Assembly: GCA_030654805.1 (NCBI GenBank)
Contig: JAURWR010000127.1
Span: 26,944 to 90,943, forward strand
DNA from: Burkholderiaceae bacterium
GTDB lineage: Bacteria; Pseudomonadota; Gammaproteobacteria; Burkholderiales; Burkholderiaceae_C
Length of the DNA stretch: 64,000 nucleotides
Direction of reading: 5' to 3'
The notes beneath the pieces were generated by a model. It worked only from the letters and a program-made list of their open reading frames with translations. It ran no database searches and had not been told where the DNA came from. Below are positions 45,620 through 50,938 of the stretch, piece after piece. Position numbers and translations under genes: made by a program. Every line of letters begins with the position of its first letter. Position 1 is the stretch's first letter.

Positions 45620-48220
<2,601 letters not shown>

Positions 48221-48374: not shown

Positions 48375-48674
48375 ATGAACATGAAATTGACTGCGACTCC
48401 TCTGACCGCCGCACTGGCCGGTGCCTTTTCCGCCGGTACCTGGCCACTGCTGTGGCCACTGTTTTCCGATACGAGCACGTCGAACAGTGTTTGGCTGGTG
48501 GTCGGCACGCTCGTACTGATCGCCTTGCCTGCCCACGCCTTCGTCGTCGGCTTCAAGCAAGGCCAGATGGCCGGATCCCGGGCGATAGACACAGCGCTTC
48601 TGAAGCGGATCGTCGTCTGGCTCCTGGCTGCGGCTGCGACCACCGCCGTCATCACCTTGTTTCGCTCCGCGTGA
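48375..48674 (+). CDS. small hypothetical membrane protein (99 aa)
   Basis: ATG after GGGAGAG. Three hydrophobic segments. No recognised family. Confidence 0.5.
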   Translation: MNMKLTATPLTAALAGAFSAGTWPLLWPLFSDTSTSNSVWLVVGTLVLIALPAHAFVVGFKQGQMAGSRAIDTALLKRIVVWLLAAAATTAVITLFRSA

Positions 48675-48717: not shown

Positions 48718-49785
48718 TCAGTCCTCCCGGACGCTCAGCTGAAACGGTATGGCGCCCTGGCTGCGATCGAGCAACGGGCGCAGCAGCAACGATGTCAGTT
48801 CGGGGCTGAGCGCCAGGTCGAACTGACCGTTGCTCTGGGCTTGCAGCCGCAGGTAGCGGCTTTCCCGCTCGAAATCGTTGCGAACGATCACGGTGATCAC
48901 CTTCTCGGAGGTGCTGATGAACACGCGGTACCTGAACCGGTCCGATGCCAGTTCGGCCTTGATCCGGCGGAGCCAGGCGGCGTCCCTGGAACGGCAGCGC
49001 AACATCGATGCCGGTGACGCAAACACGCGGGTCAAGTCGTTGTCAGAGGAATGCACGACGAGTTCGTCGTCGCGCGCCAACGCACAGACGTGGGTGCTGG
49101 ATGCGAAAGCCTGGTCGTACAGAACCACCAACGTGTCTTCCTGCCAGGTGACCGTTCCGCCTTCCGTACGCAAGCCGAAGATCAGCCCCTCGACATTCAT
49201 GTCGATCGTGCAGTCGCGCGCCCCCCGCGACTGCACGATCGCGGTGAGGACGGGGAGCACACGATCGGATGTCAGATCGCCTGATGCCAGGATGGCCCGC
49301 AGTTCGGGAGAAAGTGCCTCGTGATACGGCGTCTTGCTGCCGATCTCGAAGAAGTCCGATCCGCTCTGGTCGAGACCTTCCGCCGCAGTCCAGCGCAGCA
49401 ACTCGGCGTGCCCGTCGCTGCCAGACGACACGACCAGCAACGCGACGGCACTGTCGGCACTGTCGGCACTGTCGGCACTGAAGGGAACGATGCGGCTTTC
49501 CAGCCTGGCAAGCAGTTCGGCATTGCTGGCCGAACCACCCTGTTCACCTCGCAGAAACTCGATGACCTTCATCGCCTGTTCGCTGTCGCCGGTGCAGGCG
49601 ACCACCGTGCCGGGCGCAATACAGTGCAATTTCAGTGACACCTCTTCGACCGGCTCCTCGCGATACGCGGTGAGAAGTTCACCCAGGCTCAGCTGCCGCC
49701 GGTTCGGCGGGATCGACACAGCCGCCACCGTGTCGGCCAGCAGGTAGATCGATCCCTTGTGCTTCCAACCGGCGCAGTAGGACAC
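48718..49785 (-). CDS. proteasome/HslV-fold Ntn-hydrolase homologue with Ser1 and a C-terminal extension (possible BPH-family member)
   Basis: GTG at 49785 lies 7 nt after the crcB stop. The longer track ORF to 49893 overlaps crcB. The product begins (M)SYCAGWKHKGSIYLLADT, with Ser1, Gly10 and Asp17 spaced as in HslV TTIVSVRRNGHVVIAGD. SLKLHCIAPGTVVACTGDSEQAMKVIEFL matches the Lys33 strand plus helix. ALLVVSSGSDGHAELLRW and FEIGSKTPYH match AIGSGGPYA of HslV. Confidence 0.65.
   Translation of the reverse strand: MSYCAGWKHKGSIYLLADTVAAVSIPPNRRQLSLGELLTAYREEPVEEVSLKLHCIAPGTVVACTGDSEQAMKVIEFLRGEQGGSASNAELLARLESRIVPFSADSADSADSAVALLVVSSGSDGHAELLRWTAAEGLDQSGSDFFEIGSKTPYHEALSPELRAILASGDLTSDRVLPVLTAIVQSRGARDCTIDMNVEGLIFGLRTEGGTVTWQEDTLVVLYDQAFASSTHVCALARDDELVVHSSDNDLTRVFASPASMLRCRSRDAAWLRRIKAELASDRFRYRVFISTSEKVITVIVRNDFERESRYLRLQAQSNGQFDLALSPELTSLLLRPLLDRSQGAIPFQLSVRED
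49447..49480. repeat. in-frame 9-bp tandem repeat (GGCACTGTC x about 3.8) encoding SADSADSADSA
   Basis: Read directly from the sequence. Lies inside the proteasome-like CDS in a predicted loop. Confidence 0.9.
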
Positions 49786-49792
49786 GGATCGC

Positions 49793-50182
49793 TCAGGCCA
49801 GCAGCGTCTTCGCGAGGCGAAATCCGATCGCGCAGAACGCCAGCGCCCCCAGCAGGTGCGCCAGTGTGTGCACCATCGCCCAGCCGACATCACCTCGTTG
49901 CAGCAGCGTCAGCGATTCGCCAGTGAACGCAGAGAACGTCGTCAGTCCCCCGAGGAAACCGGTCACGAGCAAGAGGCGCATCAACTCGTTCGGCGTGCGC
50001 GCAAACCACGCCAGCGCGATGCCGATCAGCAGACCACCGACGCAGTTGACCATCAACGTGCCGAGAGGAAAACCGGCCCAGCGTGCATTCAGCCAGAGCT
50101 GCACGGCCCAGCGCAACACGCCGCCAAGCGCCGATCCGAGCGCGACGGCAAGCATCTGTGCCCAAGGCATGCCCTGGTTCAT
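49793..50182 (-). CDS. crcB: fluoride channel CrcB/FluC
   Basis: 129 aa, 4 TM, with GTLMVNCVGGLLIG and GFLGGLTTFSAF motifs. ATGA overlap with moaE. Confidence 0.9.
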   Translation of the reverse strand: MNQGMPWAQMLAVALGSALGGVLRWAVQLWLNARWAGFPLGTLMVNCVGGLLIGIALAWFARTPNELMRLLLVTGFLGGLTTFSAFTGESLTLLQRGDVGWAMVHTLAHLLGALAFCAIGFRLAKTLLA

Positions 50183-50686: not shown

Positions 50687-50938
50687 TCAGCCACCCGTCA
50701 CCGGCGGGAAGAACGCGACTTCGGCGTCGCCCGTGACCACGGTCGACTCATCGCACAGCGCCTGGTTCAACGCACTGCGCAGCGCCCGGCCACGCGCCAG
50801 GGCCGTCGCGTGGGCAGCGCTGGAGGCGATCAAACGGTCGCGGACCTCGCCGACCGTCGTTTCCGCCGCCACCTCGATCGACTCGCCGGCGCCCAGCACC
50901 TCGCGGATCGATGCGAAATAACGCACCTGAATCTTCAT
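50687..50938 (-). CDS. moaD: molybdopterin synthase sulfur carrier MoaD
   Basis: 83 aa, ubiquitin-like, C-terminal FFPPVTGG. ATGA overlap with moeA. Confidence 0.9.
   Translation of the reverse strand: MKIQVRYFASIREVLGAGESIEVAAETTVGEVRDRLIASSAAHATALARGRALRSALNQALCDESTVVTGDAEVAFFPPVTGG

Follow-up and report, generated by a model that had tools for sequence, protein, structure and literature searches.

The proteasome-like N-terminal nucleophile (Ntn) hydrolases range from barrels for bulk degradation to the specific protein ligase connectase, which is already a biotechnology tool. The 20S beta subunits and HslV (T1, PF00227) have an alpha-beta-beta-alpha Ntn fold with the helices H1-H4 and the residues Thr/Ser1, Asp17, Lys33, Gly47 and Gly128-Ser129, and the HslV protomer, about 175 residues long and encoded next to hslU, has no extra domain or insertion. 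The betaproteobacterial proteasome homologue (BPH) has a single-domain protomer of about 21.6 kDa (about 200 residues), forms a 14-mer double ring with a long acidic pore loop, and carries Thr1 in Betaproteobacteria and Ser1 only outside of them (PMC5777263). Anbu is about 240 residues long with a long C-terminal coiled-coil helix, H5, and its gene frequently shares an operon with those for transglutaminase, ATP-grasp and Alpha-E (PMC5666114). Connectase, an archaeal monomeric ligase (PDB 6ZVZ) known from methanogenic archaea only, is without H1 and H2, has a two-helix insertion at S3/S4 and has no requirement to form rings (PMC8665760, PMC7980362). In addition, a catalogue by Fuchs, Alva and Lupas (2021) lists 22 more proteasome homologues that are uncharacterised; DAH, RPC and 'DGH'/GPH among them carry structurally uncharacterised C-terminal domains, and PMI-5 and PMI-6 have S3/S4 insertions (PMC8665760). 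Here we describe a gene for a two-domain protein of this superfamily at 48718..49785 on the minus strand of a 64,000-nucleotide stretch, below called the window, from a Burkholderiaceae metagenome-assembled genome (MAG; contig JAURWR010000127.1, positions 26,944 to 90,943). It is likely that the protein belongs to a distinct two-domain proteasome-like family and is a specific, AAA+-independent and propeptide-free Ntn Ser/Thr hydrolase or transpeptidase.

The coding sequence is complete, 355 codons and a stop, and exactly the same protein of 355 residues is deposited at NCBI as a 'hypothetical protein' (MDO9316437.1). Mechanically, the open reading frame (ORF) extends upstream to a GTG at 49893, where it overlaps crcB. 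The start codon is the GTG at 49783..49785, because the 137 full-length homologues and MDO9316437.1 agree on the N-terminus: the sequence M/V/L-[T/S]-[Y/F]-C-x-G-W-K is found at the point equivalent to 49785 in 137/137 homologues, and the NCBI entry begins at the same GTG. The TGA of crcB (49795-49793) is followed by 7 nt, GCGATCC, and then by this GTG. The reading frame, strand, coordinates and start, 7 nt past crcB, are thereby the same as in a preliminary description made from the letters of the window, and the ORF is confirmed as genuine.

The relation to the proteasome/HslV superfamily is visible only by profile and structure. The window protein had no Pfam match even at E <= 10 and no meaningful match in NCBIfam or PADLOC, phmmer found no match for it among the PDB sequences, and a narrow profile of 33 sequences gave only noise against the PDB (L21, a bacteriocin). 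A family profile of 129 diverse members, on the other hand, reached HslV (4hnz, E 1.3e-4), the beta subunit of Archaeoglobus fulgidus (1j2q, E 4.7e-4) and many other 20S alpha and beta subunits; HslV, alpha and beta score equally weakly. Aligning the family by hhalign to a hand-entered E. coli HslV sequence gave the same region with E 3e-4, and PF00227 was matched weakly in 25 of the 129 members (best 1e-4). An AlphaFold2 (AF2) model of the window protein built from 33 homologues had a predicted local distance difference test score (pLDDT) of 72 and a predicted template modelling score (pTM) of 0.73. In this model H1-H4 are present, H1 at residues 68-81 and H2 at 88-98, and the gap between H3 and H4 is about 5 residues. 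The 50 best matches that Foldseek listed for the model in the PDB were 20S subunits only, with E 9e-8 to 1e-6 and prob 1.0, about 225 aligned columns and a template modelling (TM) score, on the target, of 0.5-0.71. Foldseek also matched phage proteasome/HslV-like proteins in the viral library BFVD. The model, the Foldseek and profile matches and the weak PF00227 hits together delimit an N-terminal Ntn domain similar to the one in proteasome beta subunits and in HslV, residues 1-225 (49111..49785). Independent methods thus confirm both the fold and the register of the motifs, and they support the preliminary description in seeing here an Ntn-type protein of the proteasome/HslV fold whose mature position 1 is Ser.

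In mature numbering the window protein has all of Ser1, Gly10, Asp17, Lys51, Gly65 and Gly148-Ser149, and the sequence and the profile alignments agree with the places that the preliminary description had given to Ser1, Gly10, Asp17, Lys51 and the GS(G) motif. The codon for Ser1, the predicted N-terminal nucleophile and equivalent of Thr1, is at 49780..49782, and that for Asp17 at 49732..49734. In the profile alignments to HslV and the beta subunits, L-K-L falls on Lys33, A-x-G-D on Gly47 and I-G-S on the GSG motif. This makes Lys51 (49630..49632) the equivalent of Lys33, Gly65 (49588..49590), within A-x-G-D, the equivalent of the oxyanion-hole residue Gly47, and Gly148-Ser149 (49336..49341) the equivalent of Gly128-Ser129 in the proteasome. 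Of the 137 members, 124 carry Thr and 13 carry Ser at position 1, and Asp17 is kept in 133/137. Outside the Burkholderiales clade to which the window protein belongs there are 104 members, 101 with Thr and 3 with Ser as residue 1; the Asp17 and Lys33 equivalents are found in 104/104, and those of Gly47 in 100/104, Gly128 in 102/104 and Ser129 in 88/104. The equivalent of Thr21 is mostly retained across the family. Serine at position 1 is therefore no hallmark of the family but a minority state concentrated in the Burkholderiales clade. The possibility that Cys4 serves as the nucleophile instead was rejected, since this residue is not at the N-terminus and 35/137 members have Ile or Val in its place.

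There is no propeptide in the family, because the conserved sequence starts at Met-Thr/Ser in 137/137 members. Translation begins at GTG 49785, and methionine aminopeptidase would remove the initiator Met and expose Ser1 co-translationally. Ser and Thr are permissive second residues for methionine aminopeptidase, and with no propeptide and Ser or Thr as the second residue, exposure of the nucleophile by this enzyme is to be expected. Exposure of Thr1 in this way, without a propeptide, has been demonstrated for Anbu (PMC5666114) and BPH (PMC5777263) and is presumed for connectase (PMC7980362), and Ser1 variants are known in both BPH and connectase (PMC5777263, PMC7980362). The free amine and the hydroxyl of Ser1, together with Asp17, Lys51, Gly65 and Ser149, would form an active site of the proteasome type, which is predicted to cleave or transfer an amide bond.

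Between Asp17 and the Lys33 equivalent the family has an insertion of about 18 residues with the motif S-S-F-G-E, or more generally S-[SL]-[FL]-G-E; the window protein has SLGE. It covers residues 23-45, VSIPPNRRQLSLGELLTAYREEP (49651..49719), where the pLDDT is low, and AF2 modelled it as a low-confidence loop that is not predicted to be helical. The insertion site is S3/S4, which is where connectase bears its lid (PMC8665760). Further near-invariant positions of the family are Gln185, Gly200, Gly204, Trp214-Gln-x-Asp217-Thr and Arg238. In the window protein, W-Q-E-D-T (W214, D217; 49132..49146) is a near-invariant motif that the family alignments show to be family-specific, and the near-invariant Arg238 (49072-49074) belongs to the C-terminal domain.

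This second domain comprises residues 226-355 (48721..49110). Modelled alone from 50 sequences, it gave with confidence a mixed alpha/beta structure with a pLDDT of 88 and a pTM of 0.79. Foldseek found no credible relative of the domain model in the PDB (best E 0.045, prob 0.14, TM < 0.2); the noise consisted of OsmC/Ohr and a ribosomal protein, and connectase was also unmatched. No Pfam family covers the domain in the window protein or in the 129 members scanned, and a profile of the domain alone, run against an index of 5.8 billion proteins, found one truncated family member and nothing else. The preliminary description was correct in that there is an extra C-terminal region, but its size is about 130 residues and not about 115. 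Two members, P0141 (589 aa) and P0164 (597 aa), have about 240 extra C-terminal residues past the two-domain core, and a third, P0171 (234 aa), begins only at the position that corresponds to residue 138, so that the nucleophile half is missing.

It is probable, by analogy, that the S3/S4 insertion and the C-terminal domain restrict the access to the active site and select the substrate. In connectase it is the mobile S3/S4 lid that confers sequence specificity (PMC8665760). An insertion at this site, an extra domain and the lack of an unfoldase partner together point to a specific peptidase, amidase or transpeptidase and not to a barrel for bulk degradation.

The two-domain protein shares the Ntn fold, H1-H4 and the active-site residues with the 20S beta subunits and HslV but differs from them in lacking a propeptide, in carrying both the insertion of about 18 residues and a C-terminal domain of 130 residues, and in having no partner of the hslU, PAN or Mpa type. 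An identity with HslV was rejected, given the 355 residues, the extra domain and the absence of an adjacent hslU, and no HslV-like sequence was found elsewhere in the 64-kb window. Anbu is similar in having no propeptide, no link to an AAA+ ATPase and a Thr1 exposed by methionine aminopeptidase (PMC5666114), whereas the C-terminus of the window protein is a mixed alpha/beta domain of 130 residues. No transglutaminase, ATP-grasp or Alpha-E genes were present in the window or at 20 related loci, and a PDB search with a profile of the N-terminal 80 residues of the family (E <= 10) returned no chain of Anbu; the likeness to an MTYC start of Anbu that the preliminary description suggested is a tentative one. 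Since size, C-terminus, operon and profile all differ, Anbu was rejected as well. Shared with connectase are a Thr1 or Ser1 presumed to be exposed by removal of Met, an insertion at S3/S4, extra C-terminal structure and the lack of an AAA+ partner. Unlike connectase, the window protein has both H1 and H2, its family has bacterial hosts, and a low-confidence loop of the SSFGE type takes the place of the two helices. These differences (H1/H2, hosts and a non-helical insertion) exclude an identity with connectase.

The family is large. When 1.84 billion representatives were searched exhaustively with a profile, at least 518 clusters (50% identity) were obtained at E <= 0.001, 75 of them at E <= 1e-30. 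Nearly all are 340-390 residues long and aligned from residue 1 to the C-terminus. A scan of genomes with the pattern MTYC[AIV]GWK, the only pattern used, so that the list of taxa is a lower bound, found members in Burkholderiales, Azonexus, Methylomicrobium, other Gammaproteobacteria and a Syntrophus MAG, as well as in Cyanobium, Anabaena, Nostoc, Anaerolineales, Bacteroidetes and Patescibacteria. The hosts thus belong to Proteobacteria, Cyanobacteria, Chloroflexi and further phyla. All members that were looked up are annotated as 'hypothetical protein', and neither Pfam nor NCBIfam contains a model for the family.

Closely similar family genes were found at five loci (L011:3484-4570, L012:5992-7076, L013:279-1365, L014:5999-7048 and L015:4304-5364). 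They come from a MAG of Syntrophus, the complete genome of Azonexus, a MAG of Rhodoferax and two MAGs of Gammaproteobacteria, and thus from delta-, beta- and gammaproteobacterial hosts. They are 75-90% identical in protein and 78-88% in DNA, and outside the reading frame the likeness of the DNA reaches no further than about 10 nt upstream of the ATG and about 26 nt past the stop, with different flanks on either side. There were no recognisable ends of mobile elements and no shared flanks at these five loci. Contamination of the bins is possible for the MAG copies; the Azonexus genome is complete. In several hosts, among them most of those of the five loci, the gene forms an island with a GC far below that of the flanks; the values are 0.478 and 0.631 for Azonexus, and for an Anaerolineales MAG they are 0.346 and 0.532. 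By these sequences the family gene has spread horizontally, and it looks like a unit of one gene that moves between phyla. A tblastn search with a central family member found no match in the collections of phages (50,697 records) and plasmids.

In the window itself the contrast is small. The gene has a GC of 0.632 compared to a mean of 0.661 (the 11th percentile of 1-kb windows), and the GC at third codon positions (GC3) is 0.795, as compared to 0.83-0.88 in the moa genes and clpB. The remark in the preliminary description that the gene is slightly more A/T-rich than its neighbours is thus only marginally true: it holds against the window mean and against the GC3 of the moa genes and clpB, but the GC3 of crcB is the same. 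A small contrast is consistent with an older acquisition that has since been ameliorated, and we infer that the gene is accessory, was acquired horizontally and has ameliorated in the lineage of the window.

It may be, at somewhat less than an even chance, that the family is already among the 22 of Fuchs, Alva and Lupas (2021), DAH, RPC or 'DGH'/GPH being the likeliest. This is a question of classification and is compatible with the mechanism proposed above. Their search for divergent homologues that keep the active-site residues was an exhaustive one of nr (PMC8665760), and at least one member of the present family (OYY62900.1, from a 2017 assembly) was in nr at that time. The catalogued families resemble it in their divergent proteasome-like fold, retained triad and uninformative gene context, and some of them have unmatched C-terminal domains and no conserved context (PMC8665760), both of which are true here. 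However, when compared by the published descriptions, no described family fits every feature. RPC lacks helix H2, which the window protein has at 88-98. PMI-5 and PMI-6 have an extra H3/H4 insertion, where the window protein has a gap of about 5 residues, and no reported C-terminal domain. DAH includes phage members, and the tblastn search found none of the present family in the 50,697 phage records. GPH is described as gammaproteobacterial, whereas this family occurs in Cyanobacteria, Chloroflexi, Bacteroidetes and others. None of the family members that were looked up carries an accession listed in PMC8665760.

A bolder possibility, which we put forward tentatively and hold to be rather doubtful as a whole, is that the family lies outside the 2021 catalogue and consists of stand-alone, probably non-ring, sequence-specific peptidases or transpeptidases, whose substrates would be chosen by an SSFGE lid at S3/S4 and by a C-terminal domain with a new fold. 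It would then be a bacterial functional analogue of connectase that moves between phyla as a naked single-gene unit, which would suggest a conditionally useful function, in stress, conflict or defence, with one lineage turning into a pseudo-enzyme.

Several observations weigh against a specific hydrolase or transpeptidase. The role of the S3/S4 insertion as a lid is drawn by analogy only, in a part of the model with low confidence. BPH and Anbu are inert on standard substrates despite intact active sites (PMC5777263, PMC5666114), which means that protease activity need not be detectable where the triad is intact. In proteasomes, Thr1 is the better nucleophile and Ser1 the poorer one (as cited in PMC5777263). 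Further counter-evidence comes from the Burkholderiales clade of the window protein, which consists of 33 clusters and in which the catalytic set is eroding. Position 1 is Ser in 10/33, the window protein included, and Asp17 is replaced by Asn or Ser in 4/33. The Lys33 equivalent is kept in 18 of the 33 and replaced by Arg, Ala or Pro in the other 15. Changes of this kind were noted among P0013 and P0019-P0034 (related loci L001, L004 and L006); about half of the clade is without the Lys. The Ser129 equivalent is retained in only 16/33, the Thr21 equivalent is Ala in the window protein, and one subclade (P0028-P0034) has deleted the S3/S4 insertion. At the same time W214, Q215, D217, T218 and Q185, which are not catalytic, are invariant in the clade, and R238 is found in 32/33. 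Judged from these sequences, selection in the clade may act on something other than proteolysis. In that subclade the pattern may mark a shift to a non-catalytic or altered function.

The same substitutions, with the lost insertion and the invariant non-catalytic residues, are what speaks for the protein of the Burkholderiales clade being an inactive pseudo-enzyme that is kept for binding or scaffolding, like the proteasome alpha subunits, which have the fold without the function of the nucleophile. We consider this unlikely. The window protein itself retains Ser1, Asp17, Lys51, Gly65 and Gly148-Ser149, the full triad included, despite the erosion in the clade around it. Position 1 is furthermore Thr or Ser in 33/33 members of the clade; with an irrelevant N-terminus this would be unexpected.

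The order of genes in the window is moeA-moaD-moaE-crcB, the two-domain gene, an ORF of 99 codons on the opposite strand, and clpB. The statement in the preliminary description that no AAA+ partner gene is adjacent had overlooked clpB, which encodes an AAA+ disaggregase and lies on the same strand 497 nt downstream (45620..48220). That the gene has no dedicated partner was correct, as seen from the neighbourhoods at 20 loci: an all-against-all comparison of the neighbours found no recurrent partner family. A two-component protease like HslUV, with the window protein as the proteolytic partner of ClpB, is very improbable even though clpB is so close and the arrangement of the two genes holds in relatives down to about 55% identity. 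Distant family members are found in unrelated contexts without clpB, the opposite-strand ORF stands between the two genes, and the order thrC-mobB-moeA-moaDE-crcB...clpB is common to the close relatives, so that vertical synteny suffices as an explanation. ClpB is, moreover, a disaggregase that is not known to dock onto peptidases.

Least probable of all is that the protein is BPH, a 14-mer double ring: the host is a betaproteobacterial (Burkholderiales) MAG, and the proteasome fold, the lack of a propeptide and of an AAA+ partner, and the existence of Ser1 variants are common to both (PMC5777263), but a single domain of about 21.6 kDa with Thr1 in Betaproteobacteria (PMC5777263) cannot be matched with two domains, 355 residues, 130 of them in an extra domain, an S3/S4 insertion and a Ser1 in a Burkholderiales MAG, the family is found across many phyla, and in the PDB the family profile had HslV and 20S subunits as its 60 best matches, with neither BPH nor Anbu among them although the BPH structure 5OVS has been deposited (PMC8665760). 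The assignment to BPH in the preliminary description fails on the domain number and the Thr1, and its statement that BPH carries Ser at position 1 was the wrong way round for a gene of Burkholderiales (PMC5777263).

The family is well defined and at the same time unannotated in the databases. Its size, the near-invariant triad, the insertion at the site of the connectase lid and the unmatched domain make it a candidate for a new specificity or chemistry in the superfamily, and the C-terminal domain is a candidate for a new protein fold. As a gene that is transferred singly within sharp bounds, and with a triad that decays in one clade, it offers natural experiments on what selection maintains. 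Many such divergent homologues have been on record since 2021, and no long-standing question is resolved by the window protein alone.

A feature of the window protein itself is a perfect tandem repeat inside the coding sequence (49446..49480), 3.9 copies of a 9-bp unit, CGGCACTGT on the plus strand, which encodes SADSADSAD. It adds 6 residues (SADSAD) in frame to the loop after helix H2 and is found in 0/32 of the closest homologues. The loop after H2 is the position of the pore loop in the ring-forming proteasome homologues.

As to the surroundings of the gene, a scan for promoters and terminators around it gave nothing over background. Directly upstream is crcB, for a fluoride channel (49793..50182, minus strand), preceded by moeA-moaD-moaE. 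The position crcB...two-domain gene...clpB is common to relatives down to about 55% identity. In the closest relative (75% identity) there are three other genes between crcB and the homologue, so the place at the end of a biosynthetic operon, which had been pointed out earlier, is not kept even there and carries no functional information. More distant members adjoin genes for an amidase, a periplasmic binding protein, an FAA hydrolase and a TonB receptor, or for SMC, UvrD, PhoD and BrkB, and the flanking genes are unrelated housekeeping genes. Because no neighbour recurs across the loci, the operon position and the adjacency to clpB reflect local synteny and not function. For the same reason, with no conserved neighbour at the 20 loci, we rejected the idea that the gene is functionally tied to molybdopterin synthesis or to the export of fluoride.

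The frames of moeA, moaD, moaE and crcB overlap by 4-8 nt (50179-50182, 50687-50694 and 50935-50938), with an ATGA at the stop of moaE and the start of crcB. Such overlaps are typical of translational coupling, and in this lineage crcB appears to have its place inside the molybdopterin operon; L005, L007 and L008 likewise have the order moeA-moaD-moaE-crcB. The ORF of 99 codons between the two-domain gene and clpB (48375-48674, plus strand) encodes a hydrophobic protein that belongs to no Pfam family, probably a small membrane protein, and ORFs 72-76% identical to it are located at the same place in two of these loci (L005:9085-9384 and L008:7093-7386).

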